Assembly: GCA_963721455.1 (NCBI GenBank) | Contig: CAVRJG010000021.1 | Location: 252 to 64,251 of the forward strand | Direction: 5' to 3' | Source: an uncultured Methanosarcinaceae archaeon | Lineage (GTDB): Archaea; Halobacteriota; Methanosarcinia; Methanosarcinales; Methanosarcinaceae | DNA: 64,000 nt | Shown here: one piece after another, positions 35,622-59,525 of the stretch | How the letters are laid out: each line of letters begins with the position of its first letter | Numbering within the stretch: position 1 is the first letter of the stretch | The notes under the pieces: generated by a model | What the model was told of the DNA's origin: nothing | The model's database searches: none | Seen by the model: only the letters and a program-made list of their open reading frames with translations | Translations under genes and position numbers: made by a program

Positions 35622-35849
35622 GTAATAACTCCGGTTATTGTCTTAAAGTCATGGTTCATTCACCACCTTTCTAATTAAAATTATGCATACTGAACTGCAT
35701 TGGGAGACGACCAGCTCCATTCTTTTTCCCCTCCCTGTATAAATTACCTCCAAAATTTTCCGTTTCAGGAATTTATATTCCTGCCAAGCCCCGGAGTTGA
35801 CCGTCCCAATCTTCTTGAGCACCAAAAACAATTCCTTCTTTGGAAGAAT

Positions 35850-36554
35850 ATGGTGGAAAAGGATGCAGTATTTTGGAAGGCGGTTGCCAGGAGGGCCGCA
35901 CAGGTTATAGGAGGCCTACTCTTGATTATGGCATTGTTCTTTCTTTCTGCCGGTAGGCTTGACTTGTCAAGGGCATGGATTTTCTTCGGCCTTTATTTCG
36001 TCTCTTTATTTTTCAATATGATTCTTTTTCTCAAGTTCAATCCGGAGGTTATCAGTTCCCGTAGTGAAATGATCCGAGGAGACATGAAGTGGTGGGATAG
36101 GCTTTTTGGGGTGTTCTACACCATGTTTCTTTTCATCATGTTTATTGTGTGCGGGCTCGATGTGGGAAGATTCCAGCTTTCAAGCCCCGGGATGGAGTTT
36201 TTGGCTGTTGGCCTGGTATTTTTCTTTGTGGGCTGGGTATTTGTAGCGTGGGCAATGGTCGAAAACAAGTTTTTTGAAACGACAGTCCGCGTCCAAAAGG
36301 AGAGGAATCACAGGGTTGTTTCCACAGGGCCTTATGCCATTGTCCGGCATCCGGGCTATACCGGCATGATTCTGTTTTACGGTTGCACTCCGTTCATCAT
36401 TGGCTCTCTTTACGGGCTGATCCCTGCACTGTTACTTGCTGTTGCTTTTGTTTTCCGCACATACTTTGAAGACAGGATGCTCTACGAGGAGCTTCCGGGA
36501 TATAAGGAATATACGAAGAAGGTAAAGTACCGGCTTGTGCCGTTTATTTGGTGA
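35850..36554 (+). CDS. isoprenylcysteine carboxyl methyltransferase (ICMT/PEMT) family membrane protein
   Basis: ENKFF, VVSTGPYAIVRHPGY, EDRML...Y..Y...V.YRLVPFIW. Confidence 0.88.
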   Translation: MVEKDAVFWKAVARRAAQVIGGLLLIMALFFLSAGRLDLSRAWIFFGLYFVSLFFNMILFLKFNPEVISSRSEMIRGDMKWWDRLFGVFYTMFLFIMFIVCGLDVGRFQLSSPGMEFLAVGLVFFFVGWVFVAWAMVENKFFETTVRVQKERNHRVVSTGPYAIVRHPGYTGMILFYGCTPFIIGSLYGLIPALLLAVAFVFRTYFEDRMLYEELPGYKEYTKKVKYRLVPFIW

Positions 36555-37018: not shown

Positions 37019-38359
37019 ATGAAAATGAAATTAATAGTTTATCTGCTAGCGTTATGCCTAACGTTGTCTGTTGCGTCTGTGCAAGCAAATACTGGCGAAG
37101 TTGAAATGGATAACATGACCGGAATGCATACTTCTGATTTTACCGGCGTGATGACATGTATGCCTGGAACCATGGACAACATGACAGGCGTGGACAATAT
37201 GACAGGCATGGACAACATGACTGGAATGTATATCTGTGATTTTTCCGGCGTAATGACATCTATGCCTAGAACCATGGACAACATGACAGACATGGATAAC
37301 ATGACAGACATGGACAATATGACCGGTATGGATAACATGACCGGAATGCGTACTTCTGATTTTTCCGGCGTGATGACATGTATGCCTAGAACCATGGATA
37401 ACATGACCGGTATGGATAACATGACCGGTATGGATAACATGACCGGAATGCATACTTGTGATTTTTCCGGCGTGATGACATCTATGCCTAGAACCATGGA
37501 CAACATGACAGACATGGACAACATGACAGGCATGGACAACATGACCGGTATGGATAACATGACCGGAATGCGTACTTCTGATTTTTCCGGCGTAATGACC
37601 TGTATGCCTAGAACCATGGACAACATGACAGACATGGACAACATGACCGGCACGGACAACATGACCGGAATGTATATCTGTGATTTTTCCGGCGTGATGA
37701 CATCTATGCCTAGAACCATGGACAACATGACAGGCATGGACAACATGACAGGCATGGACAACATGACCGGCACGGACAACATGACAGACATGGACAACAT
37801 GACAGACATGGACAACGTGACCGGAATGTATATCTGTGATTTTTCCGGTGTGATGACATTTATGCCTAGAGCCATGGACAACATGACAGGCATGGATAAC
37901 GTGACAGGCATGGACAACATGACTGGCATGGACAACATGACCGGAACGCGTACTTATGATTTTTCCGGCGTAATGACCTGTATGCCTAGAACCATGGACA
38001 ACATGACAGACATGGACAACATGACTGGCATGGATAATGTGACAGGCATGGATAACGTGACAGGCATGGATAACATGACCGGAAATGCAACCGGTGCAGG
38101 TGCGGACGGCAAGATTGTTGAAGTGTCAATCAAGGATTCTGCCTTTAATCCCAAATCAGTTACAGTATTAAAAGGTGATACTGTAAGATGGACGAACCTT
38201 GATTCAACTGCCCACACAATTACAGGTTCGACTTTCGATTCCGGCACACTTCAAGAAGGAGAATCATATGATTTCCCGTGTGCCGACGCAGGCACCTATG
38301 AGTATCATTGCTCGATTCACCCTTCCATGAAGGGGACTGTAATAGTTGAGGAGAAATAA
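37019..38359 (+). CDS. secreted Met-rich repeat protein with C-terminal cupredoxin (type-1 Cu) domain
   Basis: Signal peptide; (MDNMTG)n repeats; VRWTN.D..AHTIT...YEYHCSIHPSMKGTVIV. Confidence 0.88.
   Translation: MKMKLIVYLLALCLTLSVASVQANTGEVEMDNMTGMHTSDFTGVMTCMPGTMDNMTGVDNMTGMDNMTGMYICDFSGVMTSMPRTMDNMTDMDNMTDMDNMTGMDNMTGMRTSDFSGVMTCMPRTMDNMTGMDNMTGMDNMTGMHTCDFSGVMTSMPRTMDNMTDMDNMTGMDNMTGMDNMTGMRTSDFSGVMTCMPRTMDNMTDMDNMTGTDNMTGMYICDFSGVMTSMPRTMDNMTGMDNMTGMDNMTGTDNMTDMDNMTDMDNVTGMYICDFSGVMTFMPRAMDNMTGMDNVTGMDNMTGMDNMTGTRTYDFSGVMTCMPRTMDNMTDMDNMTGMDNVTGMDNVTGMDNMTGNATGAGADGKIVEVSIKDSAFNPKSVTVLKGDTVRWTNLDSTAHTITGSTFDSGTLQEGESYDFPCADAGTYEYHCSIHPSMKGTVIVEEK
37108..38082 (+). repeat. nested 18-bp repeats in higher-order units
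   Basis: ATGGACAACATGACAGGC-type 18-mers in runs of 3-6 separated by eight DFSGVMTxMPRT spacers. Confidence 0.9.
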
Positions 38360-39451: not shown

Positions 39452-39703
39452 TTAACTTCGTTCTGGAATTTTAAGCAGCCGGATTAAACCTGCAAAGGCT
39501 ACAAGTGCCCATGTTCCTTCCAGAATTACAAAGGGCGTATAATTAATCAGAACTGACGCATAGCATGAGAGCCCTGCTCCCACCACATTAAGGATTGTAT
39601 ACGTTTTCGTATCCGGCATCAGTATTTTGAAGAGATTGAGGAAAAAGGCAAGTAATAACAGGAGTACACCTGTTGAGCCCACTATTACCGAAAGTTCAAT
39701 CAT
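39452..39703 (-). CDS. small membrane protein (CBU_0592-like)
   Basis: Three hydrophobic segments, YTILNVVGA, FVILEGTW. Confidence 0.7.
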   Translation of the reverse strand: MIELSVIVGSTGVLLLLLAFFLNLFKILMPDTKTYTILNVVGAGLSCYASVLINYTPFVILEGTWALVAFAGLIRLLKIPERS

Positions 39704-39919
39704 ATACGGGCAATATAATTTTTATCTTTATATATATTTTCCTACTTTCGGTTCTGTAGAAATCCTCAGAATAAGGAATCTTCATTAATTTGAACTGAAT
39801 TATCGGATATATTTTTTCGTATTTATTTTCAGCCTCTTGCGTCTGATTTAGATAGGTTTTCTACAAAGCCCTACTTTCGTTCATTTAAATATGTGACTTC
39901 TGCCCTGAAATTAATTTTT

Positions 39920-40543
39920 TCAGCTCTTTTTTTGTTTTGGTGCCGATCTCTTATCTATAAATATAGCTATTACAGTGACCGCCATCGCAAGTGCAAGTAC
40001 TCTCATCATATTAAATCTGAAGTCAGTGCCAATCATGAGGGCATGTATTGAAACAAGTAAAAAGGCCAGGTAACTGAGGTAGTGAACTTTCCGCCAGTTC
40101 CTGTATTTTTTCCTGTATATCGCAATTCCGGCAGCCAGGAGGAACAGGTAAAAAGCCGGACGACCTGCCAGTGCGATGAAAATATTTGCCTGAGAAATTG
40201 GAGAAAAAATCTGGACGCCCCGTCCCTGTAAAACAAAAGTCAACGGGTGAATGAGAATAAACAGAATCCCGATTCTTGCCAGATTATGGTGAGCTTTCAT
40301 AAAAGGCAATCCTGATATTTTTTTAATTTTAACCATATACTCAGATGTGACTATTGCAAGAAAGAGCGTCAGGTAACCGAATGTCCCTGCAAATCTCCGG
40401 AGCATTTCAATAGGCTCCTCAGGAGTTTGCAGAATTATATATATCATAAACGCGATTATAAACAGAATTATGCCGTAAATTGAATAAAAAGGTTTATTCG
40501 AGACTCCTTTGCCTGGACTTTCTCCGCCTGATCTACGACCCAT
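39920..40543 (-). CDS. ferric reductase-like transmembrane domain protein
   Basis: HHNLA..ILIHP, WRKVHYLSY..SIHAL paired His in TM helices. Confidence 0.8.
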   Translation of the reverse strand: MGRRSGGESPGKGVSNKPFYSIYGIILFIIAFMIYIILQTPEEPIEMLRRFAGTFGYLTLFLAIVTSEYMVKIKKISGLPFMKAHHNLARIGILFILIHPLTFVLQGRGVQIFSPISQANIFIALAGRPAFYLFLLAAGIAIYRKKYRNWRKVHYLSYLAFLLVSIHALMIGTDFRFNMMRVLALAMAVTVIAIFIDKRSAPKQKKS

Positions 40544-41084
40544 ATCTTTTCCCGCCTCATCCCTATCCAGAATTCCCCCCCCGAAAGCAACTTTGCTACT
40601 CTTTTCTCACTAATAAATGCTACTACAGGCTTTTATTCTTAAAAAAGCAACCATAGCCCATTATCTTACTCTTATCTCTGGTAAGAGTGGCTTTTTTACT
40701 ATTTATTAGATTACTTTAATCGCATTAAAATTAATTCTTATTAATAAAATTGTCTTTCTCTCCTGTCTTCTCAGGCAAATACCCGAATGTACTTGCAGTT
40801 ATTCCAGAACTTAATATTCGTTTTTTGAATCTCGTCTCTGGAATTATAAGTCGAATTTCAGGCCATAGAGCAATCCTGAGGGCTCTTTAGATTAAGTCTT
40901 AAATGGGTTTTGGCATAAGTTTCTTATTAAAAAGTATTACTTTCATATGAAATAGTACGTATAATAATATTTATCTGAAATGCGTTTATATAATATATAT
41001 TATATAATATATTCTTTTCATTAACTATTGTTTCGTATTTATATTTCCATATCTATTATATTCTTCGAGTATAATCTTCTGTTG

Positions 41085-41280
41085 GTAAATACAATTTGTT
41101 GGTGCAACCTGAGATCATTTTCGTCGGAATATAATTTTTCAGCACGTAAATGGGGGTAAAATTTGCCAGTGATACATCTTCCGGAAATAATACGGATGAT
41201 TAACTGGTAAAATCATATTTTACGTGCTGTATCTGCCGATGGAAATAGTCGAAAAGCCAACATTCTTAAAATCGTATCAA
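41085..41280 (+). promoter_or_regulatory. structured 5' leader of peptide gene A
   Basis: Follows CCATATCTATTATA box; nested stems TGTTGG/CCAACA, ATTTTCGTCGG/CCGATGGAAAT, CAGCACGTAAA/TTTACGTGCTG, TTTGCCAGT/ACTGGTAAA. Confidence 0.6.
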
Positions 41281-41298
41281 ATCGAGGAGTGTATACAA

Positions 41299-41628
41299 AT
41301 GGGAATATTTAGAAAGACAATGAGCATTTTAGTAATGGTATGTTTCGTACTGTCACTGACAGCTGCGTCAGCAAGTGCATGGAATGGTGGCTGTGGGAAC
41401 GACTGTAACTGGGGCTGTGGGAACGACTGTAACTGGGGCTGTGGGAACAACTGTAACTGGGGCTGTGGGAACAACTGTAACTGGGGCTGTGGGAACGACT
41501 GTAATTGGGGCTGTGGGAACGACTGTAACTGGGGCTGTGGGAACGACTGTAACCGGGGCTGTGGGAACGGCTTTGGGTTCTTTGGGTTCAGCTTCTTTAA
41601 CTCTTTTGGGTTGGGCTGCTGTTGCTAA
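41299..41628 (+). CDS. secreted Cys-rich repeat peptide A, (GCGNDCNW)x7
   Basis: GAGGAG RBS; signal MGIFRKTMSILVMVCFVLSLTAASASA; 24-bp repeats; ends GCCC. Confidence 0.85.
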   Translation: MGIFRKTMSILVMVCFVLSLTAASASAWNGGCGNDCNWGCGNDCNWGCGNNCNWGCGNNCNWGCGNDCNWGCGNDCNWGCGNDCNRGCGNGFGFFGFSFFNSFGLGCCC

Positions 41629-41657
41629 CGACTAAACCAGTTTAAATATAACCGAAT

Positions 41658-41908
41658 GACGACCCGTTCGTACAGCCTTACATAGGATTGCAGGGGGAGT
41701 AAGCCCCTCAACCTCTCAAAATAAATATATTGAAAAATATTCAATAGGATTTACGCGCTTGAGGAGTGAAAAAAGCATGAGCACATCTGCGACAAATCTC
41801 ATGAATTATAAAAGTTTGAAGTCTCATGCGACTGGTTTTTTAGTTAAACTGCGTAAATCCTTTCCTTTTACTGGTCTGCAATCATCGAAGCGGGCTTACG
41901 AATGAGTC
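41658..41908 (+). other. long foldback 3' element after peptide gene A
   Basis: GACCCGTTCGTA/TACGAATGAGTC, GATTGCAG/CTGCAATC, AGGATTTACGC/GCGTAAATCCT nested stems. Confidence 0.6.
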
Positions 41909-41987
41909 TTATTTAATATTTTTTATAATTATGTAATCTGGAGAATAAAGCTCCATTTTCTATCTGCCTTTCTTATGCATCATATTT

Positions 41988-42989
41988 TTATATAGGAGAC
42001 TGATCCAGAAACTCGATTGCCTTGCTTATAAGGTATTCCCTGTGTGCGGATCTCTTTTCTCGCCAGGCGACTCTGAGCAAGCCGTAGCTCATATAAAGTG
42101 GAAGAACCCGCTTTATCCGGCGATATTCCTTTTCGTCTCTGCTGTAATTGTGGAGAAATCGCTTGATATGATAGAAGGAGGCATATGCCATACCTTTTCG
42201 TGCGAAATGATGGAATACTTCAGCGCACATTATCCCCAGGTCGTTCGCAGCATTCCCGTGCTCTGTGGAGAGCTCCAGGTCTATTGCATAGGTTTTGCCC
42301 CTGTAAAAGAGGTAATTTGCAGGAGTCGCATCACGGTGTATTGTACATCCCTGGTTTTCGTCCAGAAAGGGGCTTTTCTGCCATCCTTCAAGTTTTTGTT
42401 CATATATTTTTCTGGTCGAACTGCGGAGTGGCATATACTGCAGGTTACTGCGGATCTTTTCAAAATCCTTATCTTTATCGTAGTAGCTCTTTGTAGCCCG
42501 ATGAAGTTTGCTCAGCAGGCAGGCTATTGCTTCTAGCTTTTCATCCAGGTTCTTTTCGTTTTTCAGGTACCAGGAAAAAGGTTTTCCAGGGATGTATTCG
42601 GTCACAAGGACGCAGTTAAAATGGCTGCTCAGGTCAATAGGTTCAGGGACATGGATTATTTTTTCAAGCCTCTTTAATTTATAATATTCATTCAGCATGG
42701 CTTCTCTAGCATCGTACTTTTTTATTTTCCCTGTGGGTTGTGCTAAAAATTTCGCCATAACACTGAGCCCTTCTCCCTCAAACTCATATCTATATACTAT
42801 GTGGGATGCCGGTCTTACTCTGAATTCCCTGACACTGCAATTTTCGTTTTTTATCCTGCGCCCCAGAGCGTGGACTATCCAGTGTCTGAATGGATCTCCC
42901 GGCTTGAGTTTTCTAACATACTCCTGTGAAATACAGAACCCCCATTTATTCGAAATCGGAGATTGATATCTTTTCCCATCTAAGATCAA
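41988..42989 (-). CDS. APH / choline-kinase-like phosphotransferase (start uncertain)
   Basis: MAKF (VAIK-like), NEYYKL, VTEYIPG, HRDATPANY (HxDxxxxN), IDLE, DLG. Confidence 0.85.
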   Translation of the reverse strand: MILDGKRYQSPISNKWGFCISQEYVRKLKPGDPFRHWIVHALGRRIKNENCSVREFRVRPASHIVYRYEFEGEGLSVMAKFLAQPTGKIKKYDAREAMLNEYYKLKRLEKIIHVPEPIDLSSHFNCVLVTEYIPGKPFSWYLKNEKNLDEKLEAIACLLSKLHRATKSYYDKDKDFEKIRSNLQYMPLRSSTRKIYEQKLEGWQKSPFLDENQGCTIHRDATPANYLFYRGKTYAIDLELSTEHGNAANDLGIMCAEVFHHFARKGMAYASFYHIKRFLHNYSRDEKEYRRIKRVLPLYMSYGLLRVAWREKRSAHREYLISKAIEFLDQSPI

Positions 42990-43331
42990 GGTATTGGAAA
43001 CCCTTGACAGGCAGCGGAATATTCAATCTTCCTTTCCATACCAATCTGAGCGGCGGGATATAAAAGCACTGGATATTTCCTTAACTCTCTAAATTTATAG
43101 CAGTTATTTTTGAATTATATACAGGATCGCGTGACCATGAAAGTCTCAAAAAAGATGTGAGGAGAACTGAAAGCTAAGAATGGATCAGAGGCTTATCATT
43201 CATGCAAAAACCTCTGGGTAAGATAGAAAGTTAATATGGATTTATTATGGACAGGATTCGATGTCTTTTAGGTTTATCTTATGAAAACGGTTTTCAGGTT
43301 TACCCTAAAAGTTACCACAGTTATAATTAAT

Positions 43332-43505
43332 ATGGATAGTTGTTGCCCTGAATCGGGCAGTTCATTCGATAGTGAAATGGAATTTAAGAACGAGACAATT
43401 AACTGTTCATCCTACCAAAAAAAGCCGATTGGCACTGGTTTTTATGTGGTGGATTTTTTTGGAGCACACATTAAAGTGGGCCTTTTTTCTGGTGAAATTA
43501 ATTAA
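43332..43505 (+). CDS. putative 57-aa sORF (copy 1)
   Basis: MDSCCPESGSS...GAHIKVGLFSGEIN; open with the same start and stop in all three units. Confidence 0.35.
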   Translation: MDSCCPESGSSFDSEMEFKNETINCSSYQKKPIGTGFYVVDFFGAHIKVGLFSGEIN

Positions 43506-43721
43506 ATGAGTAAACATGGAAATGAATTCTAAGATGAAAACTTAAATTGCAATCTATATTAAATTAAAGAAAAGACTACACTTTTGATGAAGGCATGTTG
43601 TGATAAATACTACTTTGAGAAGACATCTCCAGAAACAGGGCTAGATAATGTCAATTTTTCTTTAATATTGGTTTCTGATTTTTATTTCTATCTATATTAT
43701 ATTATCTGGCGAATAATCACC

Positions 43722-43925
43722 TACTGATACGATTTGGGGGTCACTGTCATCGGCATATAAATCCTCAACACACAAAATGAGGATATGGGAGTAAGATTTT
43801 ACCAGTACTATGCTTTTCCAGGATAGATCTGGATGACTGATTGGTAAAATAAAATTAAAAATAAAATTATTCAGTAATTTGCCGATGAAAAATTGACTTA
43901 ATAATTAACCTTAGATTGTATCAGA
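43722..43925 (+). promoter_or_regulatory. structured 5' leader of peptide gene B
   Basis: CTGATACGATTTGGGG/CCTTAGATTGTATCAG, TCATCGGCA/TGCCGATGA, TTTTACCAGT/ATTGGTAAAA, TCCAG/CTGGA stems. Confidence 0.65.
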
Positions 43926-43980
43926 TGAATAAAAACTTAAATTGTATCATATTAAGCAAAAAAATCTGGAGTGTAGGTAT

Positions 43981-45005
43981 ATGGGGAAATTTGGAATAAA
44001 AAAGACACTGAGCATTTTCATGCTAGTGCTTTTCATAGCTTCGGTAACAGCCGCTTCAGTAAGCGCATGTAATTCCGCAGACTGCAAGCATAAAGAAGTC
44101 AAGAAAGAAGTCTGCAAGGGTGATGTCTGCAAGAATGTCAATAAGAATGTCAATGTCATACTAAACAGGGTCGTAGACAGAGACAAAGTCATTGACAGAG
44201 ATATAGACTTTGACAGAGACAGAGTCATGGACAAAGACAGAGTCATGGACAGAGTTGAGGACAGAGTTGAGGACAGAGACAAAGTCATGGACAGAGACAG
44301 AGTCATGGACAGAGACAGAGTCATGGACAGAGACAGAGTCATGGACAGAGACAGAGTCATGGACAGAGTTGAGGACAGAGTTGAGGACAGAGACAAAGTC
44401 ATGGACAGAGACAGAGTCATGGACAGAGACAGAGTCATGGACAGAGACAGAGTCATGGACAGAGACAGAGTCATGGACAGAGACAGAGTCATGGACAGAG
44501 ACAGAGTCATGGACAGAGACAAAGTCATGGACTGAGACAAAGTCATGGACAGAGACAGAGTCATGGACAGAGACAGAGTCATGGACAGAGACAGAGTCAT
44601 GGACAGAGACAGAGTCATGGACAGAGACAGAGTCATGGACAGAGACAAAGTCATGGACAGCAAAGTCATGACCTACTGTAAAGAAGTCAAGAATAAAGAA
44701 ATCTGCAAGGGTGATGTCTGCAAGAATGTTAATAAGAATGTCAATGTCATAATAAACAGGGTCGTAGACAGAGACAAAGTCATTGACAGAGATATAGACT
44801 TTGACAGAGACAAAGTCATGGACAAATACTGATACGATTTGGGGTTCACTGTCATCGGCATATAAATCCTCGAATGTCAATGTCTAGTAAACAAGGTCGC
44901 GACAGAGACAAAGTCATTGACAGAGACAGGTGCTTTGACAAGGAAAGAGTCAGATGTGACAAGAAATAAGTCAATTTCTCTGACAAGGACCGCGGCTACT
45001 GCTGA
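43981..45005 (+). pseudogene. secreted repeat peptide B, (MDRDRV)n expanded; in-frame TGA at 44533 and rearranged 3' end
   Basis: Signal MGKFGIKKTLSIFMLVLFIASVTAASVSA; AGA>TGA in one repeat; frame continues to 44832; degenerate third domain copy ends DKDRGYC* at 45005. Confidence 0.75.
44210..44660 (+). repeat. 18-bp tandem repeat array (>20 units)
   Basis: GACAGAGACAGAGTCATG units with occasional GACAGAGTTGAG inserts. Confidence 0.95.
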
Positions 45006-45076
45006 CCGAGATTTTGGCAAAGACTAAACTGGCCTGGCTATAAGCCCTGGTTATATAATAATACAAGACGTATGGT

Positions 45077-45204
45077 GACTCGTTCGTACAAGTCCTGCGT
45101 CAGATTACAGGAGCAGAAGACCCCGATCCATATAAAATCTAAAAATTGGGGTTCTTCCCTCCTGATATTGACCTGCAATCAACAAAGTGGGTCTACGAAT
45201 ATGT
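45077..45204 (+). other. conserved foldback 3' element after peptide gene B
   Basis: GTTCGTA/TACGAAT, CAGGAG/CTCCTG, AAGACCCCGAT/ATTGGGGTTCTT. Confidence 0.6.
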
Positions 45205-45481
45205 TTTATTTACTGTTTTTTATGTGATCTGGAGACTAAAATTTGAATATTTCTGAAGCTTTACAAATTTCTAACTTTTCGGTTATACTTTTATCTATGG
45301 AAAAATGATGAGGTTCTCATTGTTCATTTCCACTTTATCCACTGCAGTTTTTACATCCGGAATACCAGGAAATTTTTTACTTGATCCTGTACATTCGGTA
45401 TAATCTTATTATCCTTAATGTCTCCTAAGATTGGCTTTATTTTCTTCCGTCTTCTATCTGCCTTTCTTATGCATCATATTT

Positions 45482-45970
45482 TTATATAGGAAACTGATCC
45501 AGAAATTCGATTGCCTGGCTTATAAGGTATTTTCTGTGAGTGGATTTCTTTTCTCGCCAGGCGACTCTGAGCAAGCCGTAGCTCATATAAAGTGGAAGAA
45601 CCCGCTTTATCCGGCGATATTCCTTTTCGTCTCTGCTGTAATTGTGGAGAAATCGCTTGATATGGGGGAAGGAGGCATATGCCATACCTCTCGTGCGAAA
45701 TGATAGAATACTTCAGCGCACATGATCCCCAGGTCATTTGCAGCATTCCCGTGCTCTGTGAAGAGCTCCAGGTCTATTGCATAGGTTTTTGCCCCTGTAA
45801 AAGAGGTAATTTGCAGGAGTAGCATCACGGTGTAATATGCAGCCCTCATTTTCGTCCAGTCCAGTTCCTGAATGAATTCCCTTGTTTAATTTCTAATATG
45901 CTCCTTTGAGCACAGAACCCCATTTATACAAAATCGGAAATTGATATCCTTCCCATCTCGATTAAGATAT
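45482..45970 (-). pseudogene. internally deleted copy of the APH-like kinase
   Basis: Retains 5' segment and HRDATPANY-to-C-terminus; about 510 bp missing at the TCCAGTCCAG junction (45855-45864). Confidence 0.85.
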
Positions 45971-46217
45971 TGAAATCCTTGACAGTCAACGGAATACTCA
46001 ACCTTTCTTTTAATATTCAACCTCAGTGCAGGGGGATTTACAACTTCCAATAATGACCTGAAGCTTGATGCAAAAAGATACTTGTGAAATACAAAAGCCA
46101 AATAGTAAGGTAGAAAGCGGATCTAGATTTATAGAGGACAAGATTTAACGGTTTTTAGGTTTACCTTAAGGAAACGGTTTTAGGTTTACCTTAAAGGCCA
46201 TCAGATTCTTAATTAAT

Positions 46218-46391
46218 ATGGATAGTTATTGCCCTGAATCCGGCAGTTCATTCGATAGTGGAATGGAATTTAAGAACGAGCCAATTAACTGTTCAGCCTG
46301 CCAAAACAAGCCTATTGACACTGTTTTTTATATGATGGATTTGCTTGGAGCACACATTAAAGTGGGCCTTTTTCCTGGTGAAATTAATTAA
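46218..46391 (+). CDS. putative 57-aa sORF (copy 2)
   Basis: MDSYCPESGSSFDSGMEFKNEPINCSACQNKP...GEIN*. Confidence 0.35.
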   Translation: MDSYCPESGSSFDSGMEFKNEPINCSACQNKPIDTVFYMMDLLGAHIKVGLFPGEIN

Positions 46392-46607
46392 ATGAGTAAA
46401 CCTGAAAATGAATTCTAAGATGGAAACTTAAATTGCAATTGATATAACCTTAAAGAAAAGACAACACTTTTGATAGGGGCATGTTGTGATAAATACTACT
46501 TTGAGAAGACATCTACAGAAACAGGGCTAGATAATGTCAATTCTTCTTTAATATTGGTTTCTGATTTTTATTTCCATATATATTATATTCTCTGGATAAT
46601 AATTACC

Positions 46608-46808
46608 TACTGATACGATTTGGGGGTCTTTCATCGGCTTATAATTCCTCAGCACACAAAATGAGGATATGGGGGTAAAATTTTACCAGTACTATGCTTT
46701 TTCAGGATAGATCTGGATGACGTGTTGGTAAAATAAAATTAAAAATAAAATTATTCAGTTATTTGCCGATGAAAAATTGACTTAAAAATTAACCTTAGAT
46801 TGTATCAG
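46608..46808 (+). promoter_or_regulatory. structured 5' leader of peptide gene C
   Basis: Same stems as the leaders of B and D. Confidence 0.6.
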
Positions 46809-46864
46809 ATAAATAAAAACTTAAATTGTATCATATTAAGCAAAAAAATCTGGAGTGTAGGTAT

Positions 46865-47321
46865 ATGGGAAAATTTGGAATAAAAAAGACACTGAGCATT
46901 TTCATGCTAGTGCTTTTCATAGCTTCGGTAACAGCCGCTTCAGTAAGCGCATGTAATTCCGCAGACTGCAAGCATAAGGATAAGGTCTGCAAGGGTGGTG
47001 TCTGCAAGAATGTCAATAAGAATGTCAATGTCATAATAAACAGGGTCGTAGACAGAGATATAGACGTTGACAGAGATATAGACGTTGACAGAGATATAGA
47101 CGTTGGAAGAGCCAGAGTCATGGGCAGAGCCAGAGTCATGGACAGAGTTGATGGACAGATTTGACAGATTTGACGGATTCGACAGATTCGACAGATTTGA
47201 CAGATTCGACGGATGCGGTGACAGAGGCTGTGGCGGAGGCTGTGGCGGAGGCAGAATCGGTTTCGTTGGAAAGTTCTTTGGTTGTGTTGATGTAAACCGC
47301 GGCTGTGGCTTTGGCTGCTGA
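46865..47321 (+). pseudogene. secreted peptide C, frameshift before the Cys/Gly tail
   Basis: Signal identical to B; GAGTTGATGGAC (+1 relative to the GAGTCATGGAC repeat) stops the frame at 47164; tail DRFD...GCGGGCGGG...NRGCGFGC* in the other frame to 47321. Confidence 0.75.
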
Positions 47322-47387
47322 CCGATTTTGTTAAAGACTAAACTGGCCTGGCTATAAAGCCTGGCTATAAAATACAAGATATATGTT

Positions 47388-47514
47388 GACTCGTTCTCAC
47401 AGTCCTGCGTCAGATTACAGGAGCAGAAGACCCCGATCCACATAAAATCTAAAAATTGGGGTTCTTCCCTCCTGATATTGACCTGCAATCAACAAAGTGG
47501 GTCTACGAATATGT
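47388..47514 (+). other. conserved foldback 3' element after peptide gene C
   Basis: Nearly identical to 45077-45204. Confidence 0.6.
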
Positions 47515-47790
47515 TTTATTTACTGTTTTTTATGTGATCTGGAGACTAAAATTTGAATATTTCTGAAGCTTTACAAATTTCTAACTTTTCGGTTATACTT
47601 TTATCTATGGAAAAATGATGAGGTTCTCATTGTTCATTTCCACTTTATCCACTGCAGTTTTTACATCCGGAATACCAGGAAATTTTTTACTTGATCCTGT
47701 ACATTCGGTATAATCTTATTATCCTTAATGTCTCCTAAGATTGGCTTTATTTTCTTCCGTCTTTTATCTGCCTTTTTATGCATCATATTT

Positions 47791-48280
47791 TTATATGGGA
47801 GACTGATCCAGAAATTCGATTACCTGGCTTATAAGGTATTTTCTGTGAGTGGATTTCTTTTCTCGCCAGGCGACTCTGAGCAAGCCCTAGCTCATATAAA
47901 GTGGAAGAACCCGCTTTATCCGGCGATATTCCTTCTCGTCTCTGCTGTAGTTGCGGAGAAATCGCTTGATATGGGGGAAGGAGGCATATACCATACCTTT
48001 TCGTGCGAAATGATAGAATACTTCAGCGCACATTGATCCCCAGGTCATTTGCAGCATTCCCGTGCTCTGTGAAGAGCTCCAGGTCTATTGCATAGGTTTT
48101 TGCCCCTGTAAAAGAGGTAATTTGCAGGAGTAGCATCACGGTGTAATATGCAGCCCTCATTTTCGTCCAGTCCAGTTCCTGAATGAATTCCCTTGTTTAA
48201 TTTCTAATATGCTCCTTTGAGCACAGAACCCCATTTATACAAAATCGGAAATTGATATCCTTCCCATCTCGATTAAGATA
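47791..48280 (-). pseudogene. second internally deleted copy of the APH-like kinase
   Basis: Same deletion junction; lies about 2310 bp from copy 1. Confidence 0.85.
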
Positions 48281-48528
48281 TTGAAATCCTTGACAGTCAA
48301 CGGAATACTCAACCTTTCTTTTAATATTCAACCTCAGTGCAGGGGGATTTACAACTTCCAATAATGACCTGAAGCTTGATGCAAAAAGATACTTGTGAAA
48401 TACAAAAGCCAAATAGTAAGGTAGAAAGCGGATCTAGATTTATAGAGGACAAGATTTAACGGTTTTTAGGTTTACCTTAAGGAAACGGTTTTAGGTTTAC
48501 CTTAAAGGCCATCAGATTTTTAATTAAT

Positions 48529-48702
48529 ATGGATAGTTATTGCCCTGAATCCGGCAGTTCATTCGATAGTGGAATGGAATTTAAGAACGAGCCAATTAAC
48601 TGTTCAGCCTGCCAAAACAAGCCAATGGGCACTGTTTTTTATATGATGGATTTGCTTGGAGCACACATTAAAGTGGGCCTTTTTCCTGGTGAAATTAATT
48701 AA
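48529..48702 (+). CDS. putative 57-aa sORF (copy 3)
   Basis: Open, nearly identical to copy 2. Confidence 0.35.
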   Translation: MDSYCPESGSSFDSGMEFKNEPINCSACQNKPMGTVFYMMDLLGAHIKVGLFPGEIN

Positions 48703-48920
48703 ATGAGTAAACCTGAAAATGAATTCTAAGATGGAAACTTAAATTGCAATCGATGTGAACCTTAAAGAAAAGACAACACTTTTGATGAGGATGTGTTGTG
48801 ATAAATACTACTTTGAGAAGACATCTCCAGAAACAGGGCTAGATAATGTCAATTTTTCTTTAATATTGGTTTCTGATTTTTATTTCCATATATATTATAT
48901 TCTCTGGAGAATAATCAACT

Positions 48921-49122
48921 ACTGATACGATTTGGGGGTCACTTTCATCGGCTTATAATTCCTCAGCACACAAAATGAGGATATGGGAGTAAAATTTTAC
49001 CAGTACTATGCTTTTCCAGGATAGATCTGGATGACGTGTTGGTAAAATAAAATTAAAAATAAAATTATTCAGTAATTTGCCGATGAAAAATTGACTTAAT
49101 AATTAACCTTAGATTGTATCAG
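48921..49122 (+). promoter_or_regulatory. structured 5' leader of peptide gene D
   Basis: CTGATACGATTTGGGG/CCTTAGATTGTATCAG (16 bp, 4 G-U), TTTCATCGGC/GCCGATGAAA, CCTCA/TGAGG, TTTTACCAGTAC/GTGTTGGTAAAA, TCCAG/CTGGA; TATA-like CCATATATATTATA upstream. Confidence 0.65.
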
Positions 49123-49177
49123 ATGAATAAAAACTTAAATTGTATCATATTAAGCAAAAAATCTGGAGTGTAGGTAT

Positions 49178-49528
49178 ATGGGAAAATTTGGAATAAAAAA
49201 GACACTGAGCATTTTCATGCTAGTGCTTTTCATAGCTTCGGTAACAGCCGCTTCAGTAAGCGCATGTAATTCCGCAGACTGCAAGCATAAAGAAGTCAAG
49301 AATATAGAAGTCTGCAAGGGTGATGCCTGCAAGAATGTCAATAAGAATGTCAATATCATAATAAACAGGGTCGTAGACAGAGACAGAGTCGTTGAAAGAG
49401 ATACAGTCATTGAAAGAGACAGAGTCATTGACAGATTCGACGGATGTGGCGGCTTTGGAGGTTGTGGCGGCTTTGGCGGCGGTTGTGGCTTTGGCTGCTT
49501 TAACCGCGGATGCGGCTTTGGCTGCTGA
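49178..49528 (+). CDS. secreted Cys/Gly-rich peptide D (116 aa, intact)
   Basis: GGAG RBS; shared signal; CNSADC..VCKGDAC, NVNKNVN, DR repeats, GCGGFGG tail ending GCGFGC. Confidence 0.85.
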   Translation: MGKFGIKKTLSIFMLVLFIASVTAASVSACNSADCKHKEVKNIEVCKGDACKNVNKNVNIIINRVVDRDRVVERDTVIERDRVIDRFDGCGGFGGCGGFGGGCGFGCFNRGCGFGC

Positions 49529-49595
49529 CCGATTTTGTTAAAGACTAAACTGGCCTGGCTATAAGCCTGGCTAATTAATACGTAAAAACGATGAC

Positions 49596-49721
49596 GACTC
49601 GTTCTACAGTCCTGCGTCAGATTACAGGAGCGAAAGGCCCTAATCCAATAAAACCTAAATATTGGAGGGTCTTTCCTCCTGATACTGATCGGCAACCTCA
49701 AAATGGGTCGGTGAATGAGCC
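49596..49721 (+). other. foldback 3' element after peptide gene D (compensatory variant)
   Basis: CTCGTTC/GAATGAG, CAGGAG/CTCCTG, GAAAGGCCCT/AGGGTCTTTC, CCAATA/TATTGG. Confidence 0.6.
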
Positions 49722-49992
49722 TTATTTCACATTTTTGACGAGTATAAAATCCGTGGGTGGATTTTAAAAATTTCTAACAGTTCCTTCTTTTCTTTTCTGT
49801 TTCAGTCCATGAAACAATCATAAGGTCCACATTACTCTTTTCCATCCTGTACGCGGCGGTTGGCGTTACTTTTTGACCGAATTGGAATTATACAGAGGAA
49901 GCAATTTCTACAGAAATATTTACATACTGCCAAAGAACTAAATGTATCCAGTTACTTTTCCGGATGTCAAATACAATACTGGAGGAACCTGA

Positions 49993-50851: not shown

Positions 50852-51238
50852 ATGGGGGATAATATGGAGAAAGGTAAAGGCACAACAGGTGAAGAAAACC
50901 GCTCAACAGCGACGGGCAGAGGTACAGACTTTAAAGTCCCTTATTCACGGGCAAACGTTAACAGGTGCAGATGCCCGCAGTGTCCGGTCCAGGCAGACAG
51001 TAAGTGTGCACAGGACAAAATTCAGAACTTAAAAACGGTAATGGAAAATGTTTCTGGAGAAGGAGTCCCGAATCCCGAGGACGTTCCGGGAGTCTATTGC
51101 TCAACAGGCAAAGCCACCTGCAAGGATCTTAACCCTGACAGATCATGCATTTGTAACACATGTGATGTCTGGAAAGAGTACGCTCTCGGAAAAGGAAAAC
51201 CAGTGATGTATTTCTGCAAGAACGGCAAGGCAGCCTGA
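50852..51238 (+). CDS. Cys-rich DUF2769-type protein
   Basis: CRCPQCPVQ...YCSTGK..C...CICNTC...YFC..G.A. Confidence 0.8.
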   Translation: MGDNMEKGKGTTGEENRSTATGRGTDFKVPYSRANVNRCRCPQCPVQADSKCAQDKIQNLKTVMENVSGEGVPNPEDVPGVYCSTGKATCKDLNPDRSCICNTCDVWKEYALGKGKPVMYFCKNGKAA

Positions 51239-51519: not shown

Positions 51520-51895
51520 TCTTTACCCGCGATACGACTTTGAAGTTACAGTCGCAGGAGCATTCCTGACATTACCTGGCACAGGACTAAGAGCCTGGAG
51601 CATGTGGACACCGGGTAAATACTTCTCTGTCCATATCGAGATTAAAAATAACCATCAGCTAATTGAAAGCGGCTCCTATAAATTCACAAGGCACCCGGCT
51701 TATGCAGGAAACATATGGCAGGCTGTAGGTATTCCTCTCATCCTGAACGCTTACTTTTCCCTGGGTACATCGGCAGTGCTTATTTTCCTGTTTTTATACA
51801 GATTGATGTTCGAAGAAGAGATCCTTATCCGGAAAACCAAAGGTTATGGGGATTATGTAAAGAGGACAAAAAGGCTAATTCCTAAAGTATGGTAA
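51520..51895 (+). pseudogene. 5'-truncated ICMT-family methyltransferase
   Basis: HQLIESGSYKFTRHPAY, EEEIL..Y..Y..RTKRLIP; upstream frame closed by TGA, no N-terminal half. Confidence 0.65.
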
Positions 51896-58187: not shown

Positions 58188-59123
58188 ATGGTCGGTGGTA
58201 TGAAATCCAAACTTCTTGTCTTTCTACTGGTTCTTTCGCTTGTTGCAAACGCTTATTTTGTCTTGTTTGAAGAACAGCCTTCCTTTGAGGGAGGACAGGT
58301 CAAGGAAATGCAGGCCCGTATAAATATTCTTCAAACGGAAAACGAAAACCTTCAGGCGCAAATAAATCAGAATAATGAGTCGCTTAAGTCTTATGCTTCT
58401 CAGCTGGACTCTTATCGCCAAAAGGTCTTTGAACTTCAGAATAGCACTCAAATGTGTCCAGCGGGCGTGGAAGGGTTTGCTACCCTTCAGGGACCTGCAG
58501 TCTTCCAGACTGTCCAGACAGATCAGTCAGGCCCCTTCATCCGGCAATCAACTTCTAAAAAAGGCGCCCTGCTCAATATTTCGGTTGAGACCAGGCCAGG
58601 AAAAGGCCGAGTGCTCGTCCAGACAACGCCTCTGATGGGCGTGATCTTCCAGGATGCTGCAAACACCGCAGCTTTTGTGGCTGAAAACAAAACCGGGAAG
58701 CAACTGTCAAGCAGTGATATTATCTTCAGTATTACCGCCCCGTATCAAATCCCGGGGGTCGATGGTCCCAGTGCAGGGGCTCTCATGACCCTGCTTACAA
58801 TTTCTGCCATTGATAACAATACAGAATTGAATAACAGTATAACCCTTACAGGCACGATTGACAATGAAGGCAATATCGGCCCCGTAGGGGGAGTTTTCGA
58901 AAAAGCCAGAGCAGCAGAAGCCGGGGGCAAAACTCTCTTCCTTATCCCTGGGGAAAACCGCGAGCTTGTCACATACAGGTATGTAGATAGGAAGTTCGGC
59001 GGCTTTACTGTTACTGAAAGAGTGGCGGAAATAGTAGATGCTAAAGAGTATATCGAGAAAAATGTGGGAATCAAGATCGAATACGTGGATACAATTGAAG
59101 ACGTACTGAGGTATGAGAAGTAA
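58188..59123 (+). CDS. membrane-anchored S16 (Lon C-terminal-like) serine protease
   Basis: VDGPSAG catalytic Ser, ITLTGTI..GNIGPVGGVFEKARAA Lys; N-terminal TM and coiled coil. Confidence 0.88.
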   Translation: MVGGMKSKLLVFLLVLSLVANAYFVLFEEQPSFEGGQVKEMQARINILQTENENLQAQINQNNESLKSYASQLDSYRQKVFELQNSTQMCPAGVEGFATLQGPAVFQTVQTDQSGPFIRQSTSKKGALLNISVETRPGKGRVLVQTTPLMGVIFQDAANTAAFVAENKTGKQLSSSDIIFSITAPYQIPGVDGPSAGALMTLLTISAIDNNTELNNSITLTGTIDNEGNIGPVGGVFEKARAAEAGGKTLFLIPGENRELVTYRYVDRKFGGFTVTERVAEIVDAKEYIEKNVGIKIEYVDTIEDVLRYEK

Positions 59124-59239
59124 GATCGAGAAATCTGAATTTCGACTGAACGTATACTGCGATGCTAATAGTTTTTTCGGGGATCCTTTTTTCCCCGGAG
59201 CTGGCATTTTTTTGTACGGCTGCATGGAACTTTTGCAAA

Positions 59240-59525
59240 TCAGACCGGGAAATCTTCTATTTTCTCAAAAAAATGAATTTCAGGCTTACCGCAGACCCCT
59301 ACTTCTTGCATTCTCTTTTTCAGATCCTCGGATTCTACGAATTTGGTTCCTTTTTCTTTTGTATCCCATTCAAAAAGGATAAAGATGTCATTTGGGTTGT
59401 CCAGGCTGTGGAATAGCTGTCCGTCTTTGCAGCCGGCTTTCCCTCTCGTGGATCCGTGTTCATTAAAAAAGGTTTCCATCTGGAATAATCTTCGACTCGG
59501 TGCTTTATAGCGACATGTACTATAA
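59240..59525 (-). pseudogene. small cyclase/ABM-like protein, frameshifted
   Basis: HRVEDYSRWKP then FFNEHGSTR...DNPNDIFILFEWD in the adjacent frame; 6-T run where 7 would keep frame; apparent start codon reads ATA. Confidence 0.7.

Follow-up and report, generated by a model that had tools for sequence, protein, structure and literature searches.

What kind of product is made by a row of four small genes in a methanogen genome, each of which opens with a signal peptide and continues into a repetitive body of its own, and what has the kinase gene in their midst to do with them? The question is raised by a 64,000-nucleotide (nt) stretch of DNA from an uncultured Methanosarcinaceae archaeon (GenBank assembly GCA_963721455.1, contig CAVRJG010000021.1, positions 252 to 64,251), hereafter the window. 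A first-pass annotation had proposed an undescribed system of diversified secreted peptides paired with an APH-like kinase, the peptides being either matrix or fibre subunits or precursors akin to ribosomally synthesized and post-translationally modified peptides (RiPPs). We conclude with moderate confidence that the product of the locus is an abundant, exported peptide of the envelope or matrix that may bind metal, made from a self-contained and strongly expressed cassette, and that the kinase is most likely a passenger. The G+C content of the window (~41%) is like that of a Methanosarcina chromosome, and relatives of its kinase are found at 69-88% identity in Methanosarcina genomes and metagenome-assembled genomes (MAGs).

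The open reading frame (ORF) list and translations place the four genes, designated A to D, on the plus strand between 41.0 and 49.8 kb, with the same start codons as annotated previously (all coordinates are collected in the table). The product of gene A consists of a 27-residue Sec signal peptide, the core WNGG(CGNDCNWG)x8, encoded by a 24-nt in-frame tandem repeat of 7.5 copies, and the tail GFGFFGFSFFNSFGLGCCC. Translation also bore out that B, C and D share an identical 29-residue signal peptide (MGKFGIKKTLSIFMLVLFIASVTAASVSA) and a Cys-containing head, CNSADC..C....CKNVNKNVNV, which in D is followed by (DRxxVx) repeats, (GCGGFG)n and a terminal GCGFGC. Gene B starts with the signal peptide, the head and (MDRDRV)n, encoded by 27 copies of an 18-nt repeat, in which an AGA codon has changed to an in-frame TGA (44533-44535); then come a second partial head (44676-44829), 43 nt that derive from the 5' leader of the same gene (44830-44872) and a third partial copy in another frame, which ends ...DRGYC with a stop at 45005. 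Frame 1 of gene C encodes the signal peptide, the head and (DRDIDV)3 up to a stop at 47164, and its (DRF)n repeats, Gly/Cys tail and final GCGFGC are readable only after a +1 frameshift near 47147. Because of the TGA in B and the frameshift in C, the earlier statement that all four products end in Cys holds as written only for A and D.

We compared the window with syntenic loci in a Methanosarcinales MAG (L001), Methanosarcina sp. Z-7115 (L002), an ENA MAG (L003) and Methanosarcina sp. T3 (L004), and with five metagenome contigs (L013, L017, L021, L027 and L030). A metagenome scan with the leader pattern returned 29 loci, 5 of which were genuine, the others being chance matches in unrelated GC-rich contigs. 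The ancestral gene order is ferric-reductase-like membrane protein, A-type peptide, kinase, B-type peptide, membrane-anchored rhodanese and DUF2769 protein. These loci and about 20 protein clusters with the full family architecture, found with a family profile among 5.8 billion proteins, served to describe the peptides. Each has a Sec-type signal peptide of 27-29 residues, ending ..TAASASA in A-type or ..TAASVSA in B-type members; an in-frame tandem-repeat core that is different in each genome (KDKCDW, GCGYERNHC, DCDCDRDKC, GYGDNW, (RFD)n, (KFVEKE)n and CCDRDR are examples); and a conserved tail, C-x-FDFxSFFG-x(2-4)-FFG, with Cys or Trp as the last residue. Thus, the complete divergence of the bodies reported for the window extends to paralogues, species and even strains: L001 and L030, two strains of one organism, carry 5 and 7 copies of KDKCDW, respectively.

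The profile was essential to this result, since a search with peptide D as a single sequence, in which the signal peptide alone is alignable, recovered only one relative. The sole NCBI-named match of the profile was a marginal one to a hypothetical protein of M. horonobensis. Peptides A, B and D matched no Pfam family, A and D matched neither a peptide family nor a metal-binding family in NCBIfam, and we found no description of the family in the literature, in keeping with its first-pass designation as an undescribed, diversified, signal-peptide-bearing family. The magnetite-induced cluster T3_3948-3952 and genes T3_2296-2299 of strain T3 (PMC12297640) were considered and are different genes from the T3 peptide. 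In the T3 genome, a mirrored minus-strand ORF is called instead of the peptide. Such ORFs, of 180-240 amino acids (MTLSLS.., HDSVSV..), also mirror the peptide repeats of the window (43947-44880, 46940-47488 and 49150-49701); they arise as by-products of low-complexity repeats rather than being genes, and gene callers could be misled by them. Separately, at least 125 clusters of 40-180 amino acids (P0085-P0215) share a Methanosarcina-type signal peptide, ..IKKTLAILLAVFFVxSxTAASASA, in front of low-complexity bodies of many kinds, in which Cys, His, Asp, Lys, Trp, Tyr and Gly are abundant; the set is a far wider group of small secreted proteins than the family with the FFG tail.

The peptide ORFs appear to be genuine coding sequences, judging from their repeat periods, open alleles, synonymous signal-peptide changes and ribosome-binding sites. 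All repeat periods detected within them by TRF (24, 18, 36, 9, 27 and 12 nt) are multiples of 3, and more than 20 alleles keep an open frame although their repeat arrays differ completely. Codon differences in the signal peptide are divided between synonymous and non-synonymous as 158 versus 149 in A-type and 27 versus 27 in B-type genes, and the signal-peptide end ..SLTAASASA is retained despite many silent changes. A GGAG ribosome-binding site is located 5-8 nt upstream of each ATG.

The mature parts are short (~55-95 residues) and of unusual composition: across 22 mature peptides, Asp accounts for 17%, Gly for 14.5%, Phe for 13%, Cys for 13%, Lys for 9%, Asn for 7%, Trp for 6% and Arg for 6% of residues, and the aromatic residues Phe, Trp and Tyr together for ~22%. 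Ser (2.7%), Thr (0.5%) and Tyr (2.8%) are scarce, several members lacking Ser or Thr, and many members are strongly acidic, with net charges down to -13. The AlphaFold2 (AF2) model of peptide A, built with the family alignment, has a predicted local distance difference test score (pLDDT) of 49 and is confident at the signal-peptide helix only; the mature part is accordingly predicted to be disordered (pLDDT <50). The lipobox rule is not followed, in that VSA|C occurs in B, C and D and SASA|C in a few relatives, and the +1 residue is Gly, Ala or Trp in most orthologues. Nor do the tails carry an archaeosortase signal of the PGF-CTERM type, as they end in Cys or Trp, without a basic cluster, and in most cases have Asp inside the aromatic stretch.

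The flanking non-coding sequences vary far less. The upstream 300 nt are better conserved than the coding bodies, whether A-type is compared with B-type or one genome with another, and comprise an AT-rich promoter-like box followed by a leader that is conserved in the 7 A-type and 6 B-type sequences compared. The A leader has nested helices, TTTTCGTCGG/CCGATGGAAA, CAGCACGTAA/TTACGTGCTG and TTTGCCAGT/ACTGGTAAA, and the ribosome-binding site GGAGTGTA. The complementary segments TTTTCATCGG/CCGATGGAAA and TTTACCAGT/AyTGGTAAA occur in both gene types, and the pairing CAGCACGTAA/TTACGTGCTG is confined to the A-type. In single-sequence folding, the A leader reached z = -4.1, consistent with the structured leader annotated before, and a segment of the B leader a non-significant z = -1.1. 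For two helices, 93% of cells are paired across the 13 leaders, versus 28-56% when the partners are slid, and two pairs show double changes, which 12 of 500 shuffles reach or exceed. All 3 B-type units of the window also carry a 26-nt tandem duplication (CTTAAATTGTATCAGATGAAGAAAAA x2; 43910-43962, 46794-46846 and 49108-49160) just 5' of the ribosome-binding site, which is absent in L001-L003.

Downstream of A, the 3' untranslated region (UTR) contains an element, GACTAAAC..ATGACGACCCGTTCGTACAG..GCAGGGGGAGTAAGCCCCT, that is kept between A- and B-type genes and across genomes. The foldback 3' element of the first-pass annotation is present as well: the hairpin of unit 3 has a minimum free energy of -66 kcal/mol (z = -5.5), and the B-type hairpin shows two compensatory pairs among 6 sequences. 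In the whole window, Rfam 15 detected only one tRNA at the gathering score and matched neither leader nor 3' element; with permissive thresholds, the best E-values in 40900-44000 were 4.5 or worse. Very abundant mRNA, a long structured 5' leader and a strong 3' hairpin are also features of surface-layer and envelope genes, an analogy from which a stabilising role of the UTRs may be inferred. However, surface-layer proteins have lattice-forming domains, whereas the products here are tiny and predicted to be disordered.

Contigs of environmental relatives show that transcripts of the peptide genes are very abundant. Sequence words of gene D were found in 20 metatranscriptome runs, which come from at least 12 studies and in some cases comprise only 21-70 Mb, and those of the kinase gene in 3-4 runs. 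We mapped assembled RNA contigs from five metatranscriptomes onto the locus. At the array, they cover the peptide genes and their UTRs only, at depths of 13-290 (20-138 for A, 74-165 for D), and start at 41151-41194 for A and at 43747-43778 for the B-type; those of A end at 41904-41918, near the oligo-T run. The kinase had a depth of 0 in all five metatranscriptomes, and still 0 in the four that were re-checked at 80% likeness. Across 13.5 kb of flanking housekeeping genes, depth in the same runs was at most ~3 (cysteinyl-tRNA synthetase in X13), with one spot of 11. Furthermore, a 675-nt contig joins the A-type leader and signal peptide to 270 nt of another body and to the conserved 3' UTR, and single metatranscriptomes contain several different bodies behind the same signal peptide.

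The window also records how the array was amplified. Direct-repeat analysis placed units 2 and 3 2309-2312 nt apart, matching the reported spacing of about 2310 bp, with several 300-nt stretches being 100% identical; the leader and peptide-head segments of units 1 and 2 are offset by ~2884-2886 nt and the kinase-derived segments by ~3494 nt. In a three-way alignment, units 2 and 3 are 96-100% identical from the spacer through the kinase relic, the decayed ORF and the leader to the signal peptide and head, a likeness far beyond chance; the repeat body, at 0-70%, and the 3' hairpin, at 57%, are much less alike. The alternating kinase copies of the first-pass annotation do exist as three kinase-derived segments, but only one is intact and the other two are frameshifted C-terminal relics. 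Likewise, an intergenic region of ~1 kb precedes the B-type genes, but it holds the remnant of a decayed ORF that is also present in L001 (8443-8819), L002 (9335-9752) and L003 (5335-5752). This ORF (~140 amino acids; motifs ..FIMDRIQRLLGLPYENGFRFTLK..CPESGSSFDS..INCS..GAHIKVG..DKYYFEKTSPETGLDNV) has no Pfam match. Its tblastn hits, obtained with the read-through L003 copy as the query, are split across frames in most copies; the unit 2 copy aligns in a single frame, yet the ORF list has a stop at 46389-46391. The idea that the ORF is a TnpB zinc-ribbon relic and the leader an omega-RNA was dropped, as it had no Pfam support.

These data are consistent with the following succession. The ancestor would have possessed two paralogous genes, one A-type and one B-type, whose family of small, exported proteins of low complexity is confined to Methanosarcina. 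The B-type cassette would then have been duplicated in tandem together with the neighbouring kinase gene, one copy would have lost the 5' half of the kinase, and the shortened 2310-nt unit would, very recently, have been duplicated anew. Finally, illegitimate recombination and point mutation would have disrupted B and C, and only A and D remain intact.

The intact kinase is most likely a bystander carried along in this amplification, and its adjacency inherited synteny; it is unlikely to be a peptide modifier. It matches the Pfam family APH (PF01636) with 32 bits (cut-off 23.2, E = 1.3e-7) and carries the catalytic motifs HRDATPAN (HxDxxxxN) and IDLE (D-x-E), the latter with the metal-binding Asp; no substitution of H218, D220, N225 or D237 occurs in 26 homologues. 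The top 50 Foldseek matches of its AF2 model (pLDDT 89) in the PDB were all small-molecule kinases or unnamed putative APH-family entries (TM-scores 0.46-0.62), with no protein kinase among them; the named ones included PsiK, APH(2''), APH(3'), 25-hydroxysteroid kinase, choline kinase LicA, macrolide phosphotransferase, methylthioribose (MTR) kinase MtnK and ethanolamine kinase. The best profile match to PDB sequences was amicoumacin kinase. The kinase has no signal peptide and is interpreted as a cytoplasmic small-molecule kinase.

Genomic context leads to the same conclusion. Adjacency of kinase and peptide, which the first-pass annotation had taken for a functional pairing, is consistent within one shallow Methanosarcina clade (kinase identity of at least 69%) but not beyond it: no peptide gene is called beside any of the six examined homologues at 38-53% identity, which come from M. 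siciliae, Methanohalophilus, Methanoculleus and other Methanosarcinaceae. A HAD hydrolase directly adjoins 5 of the 6, and in the sixth (P0015) it lies ~0.9 kb upstream, beside a second APH gene. Within the clade, L002 has the kinase in fragments and L017 has it with an internal deletion, the peptides beside both being intact; in T3 and L013, inserted genes part the kinase from the A-type gene, and T3, at least, lacks the B-type gene. The shallow-clade adjacency, the HAD-paired relatives and the decay beside intact peptides thus identify the kinase as a probable passenger. By Pfam score, motifs and structural matches it resembles the family of APH, choline kinase and MTR-kinase-like proteins, which are often HAD-paired, but differs from these pairs in that this paralogue has lost its HAD neighbour. 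The APH-kinase and HAD-hydrolase pair itself (L005 5001-6842, L006 2524-4115, L007 5001-6595, L008 4234-5948 and L009 245-2064) appears from its sequences to be an uncharacterised small-molecule kinase/phosphatase module of Methanosarcina, Methanohalophilus, Methanoculleus and other Methanosarcinaceae.

How, then, might the peptides work? Conservation of signal, tail and UTRs, a replaceable core, abundant RNA and predicted disorder are best accommodated by an abundant exported material. Each cassette comprises an AT-rich promoter, a helix-forming leader of ~200 nt with GGAG, a Sec signal of 27-29 residues with an A-x-A cleavage site, the tandem-repeat core, the aromatic-glycine tail FDFxSFFG..FFG up to Cys or Trp, the 3' hairpin and oligo-T. 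Replication slippage and unequal recombination would rebuild the core in each lineage; it can be replaced entirely provided that charged residues, Cys, aromatic residues and Gly stay plentiful. Once exported and freed of their signal peptide, the disordered chains would accumulate on or around the cell. There, the FF-rich conserved tail may drive self-association or anchoring, and the repeats, rich in thiols, carboxylates and aromatic groups, may offer a sticky or metal-binding surface that tolerates changes of sequence. Diphenylalanine is a known core motif of self-assembly.

The closest analogues of such a material are low-complexity matrix proteins, namely keratin-associated high-sulfur and high-Gly/Tyr proteins, plant glycine-rich cell-wall proteins and biomineralisation proteins, which share the Gly/Cys/aromatic/charged composition, variable repeats, high expression and a function tolerant of sequence turnover. 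They differ from the window peptides, which are tiny and archaeal and carry the FDFxSFFG..FFG tail. The matrix or fibre role suggested in the first-pass annotation is possible. Disulfide cross-linking is unlikely at methanogenic redox potential and doubtful in a strict anaerobe, and the mature part is predicted to be disordered. What is new in the family is its architecture, its shared-UTR cassette and its host; it is not a new kind of system.

Several considerations weigh against our interpretation. The RNA contigs derive from environmental relatives rather than from reads of the source strain, contig depth is a rough measure of expression, and the unusually conserved leader and signal-peptide segments recruit contigs from many strains. 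We infer export, cleavage, location, self-association and metal binding alike from sequence. With 2 of the 4 peptide copies broken, the amplified copies may be under weak selection. Cys-free B-type cores such as (RFD)n and (MDRDRV)n weaken a uniform metal-binding role, and the leader structure is plausible, with modest covariation support because the leader sequences are too similar. Finally, the kinase lies 0-5 kb from the A-type gene in every clade genome examined, so that a functional link between kinase and peptide, for instance an indirect one via a small molecule, may yet exist.

Among the alternatives, the one that survives best, although we regard it as unlikely, is that the peptides are primarily secreted metal- or metal-sulfide-binding molecules, that is, an extracellular metallothionein or a metallophore, in which the tail is secondary. 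The repeats, with their free thiols, carboxylates and His residues, would scavenge or buffer metals (Ni, Co, Fe, Zn or Cu) in sulfidic sediment. The high Cys and Asp contents, the regular C-x3-C, CxC and CC spacing and the His-containing repeats of relatives (CHKDKC, HNHHHDDDDC) point in this direction, as do the reduced state of extracellular thiols in a strict anaerobe and the neighbouring genes for Met-rich cupredoxin, ferric-reductase-like, membrane-anchored rhodanese and Cys-rich DUF2769 proteins. The small A-type members, with up to 22% Cys (in A), also recall metallothioneins and phytochelatin-like peptides. However, metallothioneins are cytosolic and aromatic-poor, whereas the window peptides carry signal peptides, are 22% aromatic and in some cases have Cys in the tail only. 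Moreover, neither Pfam nor NCBIfam returned a metallothionein or other metal-binding family, the binding geometry is not conserved, some B-type cores are devoid of Cys, and the neighbours show no RNA co-abundance and are partly replaced in strain T3. In a reduced habitat, members rich in Cys, His and Asp could reasonably have metal or metal-sulfide binding as their specific role, which does not suit the Cys-free B-type cores.

A bolder version, which we consider somewhat less probable still, holds that the peptides are a hitherto unrecognised exported class, extremely abundant, hypervariable and rich in thiols, aromatics and acids, that forms a coat on the cell or its matrix through which metals or minerals are contacted, the conserved, structured leader being a new cis-regulatory RNA. 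Such contact could serve metal-sulfide acquisition, redox buffering or electron exchange.

It is improbable that the products are competition or defence peptides, archaeocin- or defensin-like, under diversifying selection with tandem amplification. Like conotoxin and defensin-like superfamilies, the family combines a near-invariant signal and flanking non-coding sequence with a variable mature part in small, Cys-rich secreted products of tandem genes, and its mature parts are wholly different between close strains. In those superfamilies, however, substitutions accumulate on a fixed disulfide scaffold, whereas change here proceeds through the birth, expansion and loss of short in-frame repeats, in a mature part predicted to be disordered and in a strict anaerobe. 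In addition, many members are strongly acidic, and the 19 ORFs scanned around the locus (28.6-56.7 kb) include no immunity, processing or export genes.

Very little probability remains for the view that the array is non-functional debris of orphan ORFs or a product of repeats collapsed or expanded by the assembler. B and C are indeed broken, two kinase copies are relics, near-identical units such as 2 and 3 are hard to assemble, and no sequencing run of the source strain was found, the best run containing 28% of the sampled words. Against this, A and D are intact, A- and B-type orthologues are intact in several genomes with synonymous changes that preserve the signal peptide, abundant transcripts occur in many independent samples, and the left break of the kinase relic (42365) recurs as a joint in a contig of an unrelated freshwater metagenome (X2).

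Least probable of all is the system of the first-pass annotation, in which RiPP-like precursors or matrix subunits have an APH-like kinase of their own to phosphorylate them: a kinase or remnant within 0-5 kb of a family peptide at all clade loci and sub-threshold matches to the kinase regions of the NCBIfam LanKC/LanL models (E ~0.01) speak for it, but the single-domain small-molecule fold, the distant homologues with HAD rather than peptide neighbours, the kinase decay in L002, L017 and units 2 and 3, the absence of kinase RNA where peptide depth exceeds 100, a Sec signal on the peptides and none on the kinase, and the scarcity of Ser and Thr leave it unsupported. The obvious precedents, class III/IV lanthipeptides (LanKC/LanL), resemble the locus in that a small peptide gene adjoins a kinase-fold gene. 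However, their cytoplasmic leader contrasts with the Sec type I signal here (basic n-region, hydrophobic core, A-S-A/V-S-A) and their Ser/Thr-rich cores with cores almost without these residues; the kinase scores 14 bits against LanL/LanKC cut-offs of 650/575, and no lanthipeptide lyase or cyclase gene occurs among the 19 ORFs scanned. These ORFs do not include a radical SAM gene either, and peptide A scores 15.2 bits (cut-off 50) against TIGR04117, the Cys-Xaa-Xaa-Xaa radical-SAM target model.

Several genes around the array deserve mention. A plus-strand gene (37019-38359), conserved beside the locus in L001, L017 and L030, encodes a secreted protein of 446 amino acids with ~30 Met-rich DNMTG(M) repeats, each with an N-x-T sequon, interspersed C/S-DFSGVMT-C/S-MP units and a terminal cupredoxin domain (Pfam Cupredoxin_1, 5e-11); by its sequence, it could be a copper-binding, heavily glycosylated envelope protein. 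Genes for ICMT/PEMT-like membrane methyltransferases flank the peptide locus at 5-8 kb in several genomes, and given the Cys-rich peptide ends (GCCC, GFGC, CCIF), modification of the C-terminal Cys is conceivable. The gene for the Cys-rich DUF2769 protein is doubled in L001 (4456-4869 and 5135-5512). RNA contigs were also recovered at two other positions. One group (39716-39901; depth 27-45 in X13) lies in the spacer between two minus-strand genes, a ferric-reductase-like gene (39920-40543) and a membrane ORF of 83 amino acids (39452-39703), and may represent a UTR or a small RNA. The other (59038-59400; depth 7-31 in X13, also in X25) spans the 3' end of the ORF at 58188-59123 and the following spacer, includes one contig with a 101-nt replacement, has no Rfam match and may be an unannotated RNA.

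Table. Positions of the peptide cassettes, kinase segments and neighbouring features (window coordinates unless another locus is named; aa, amino acids).
Feature	Position	Strand	State or evidence
A 5' leader	41100-41298	+	conserved; fold z = -4.1; RNA contig starts
Peptide gene A	41299-41628	+	intact, 109 aa; ORF and translation
A 3' UTR	41629-41927	+	conserved element; oligo-T run 41919-41925
APH-fold kinase	41988-42989	-	intact, 333 aa, single domain; convergent with A, divergent from B
Decayed ORF remnant	43241-43658, 46128-46538, 48439-48856	+	tblastn with read-through L003 copy
B-type promoter-like AT-rich box and 5' leader, unit 1	43675-43980	+	alignment, TRF, RNA contig starts
Peptide gene B	43981-45005	+	disrupted mosaic; ORF list and translations
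3' hairpin, unit 1	45060-45185	+	direct repeats; T-runs after
Kinase relic 2	~45464-45883	-	residues ~201-333 only, frameshifted, without N-lobe
5' leader, unit 2	46605-46864	+	alignment
Peptide gene C	46865-47321	+	frameshifted; ORF list and translations
3' hairpin, unit 2	47370-47495	+	direct repeats, alignment
Kinase relic 3	47773-48194	-	residues ~201-333 only, in three frames
5' leader, unit 3	48918-49177	+	alignment
Peptide gene D	49178-49528	+	intact, 116 aa; ORF and translation
3' hairpin, unit 3	49577-49740	+	CAGGAGCGAAAGGCCCT ... AGGGTCTTTCCTCCTG, then oligo-T
Cys-rich DUF2769 protein	50852-51238	+	CRCPQCPVQADSKC...; conserved downstream of rhodanese gene
ICMT/PEMT-like methyltransferase	35700-36554, 51602-51895	+	downstream copy is a 97-aa fragment
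ICMT/PEMT-like methyltransferase, other loci	L001 3500-4198, L002 15888-16400, L003 10826-11530		

Methanosarcina is a major producer of methane in sediments, soils and digesters, and hypervariable exported peptides of a family absent from curated databases may be the source of some of its most abundant environmental transcripts. In that case, much of its surface or extracellular biology would be unaccounted for, including aggregation, metal acquisition in sulfidic habitats, contact with minerals and interactions with neighbours. Recognition of the kinase as a probable passenger averts the false annotation of a new RiPP class. A constant promoter, leader, signal peptide and hairpin around a free core provide a natural example of low-complexity protein evolution, and the cassette could serve methanogen genetics as an expression and secretion module.

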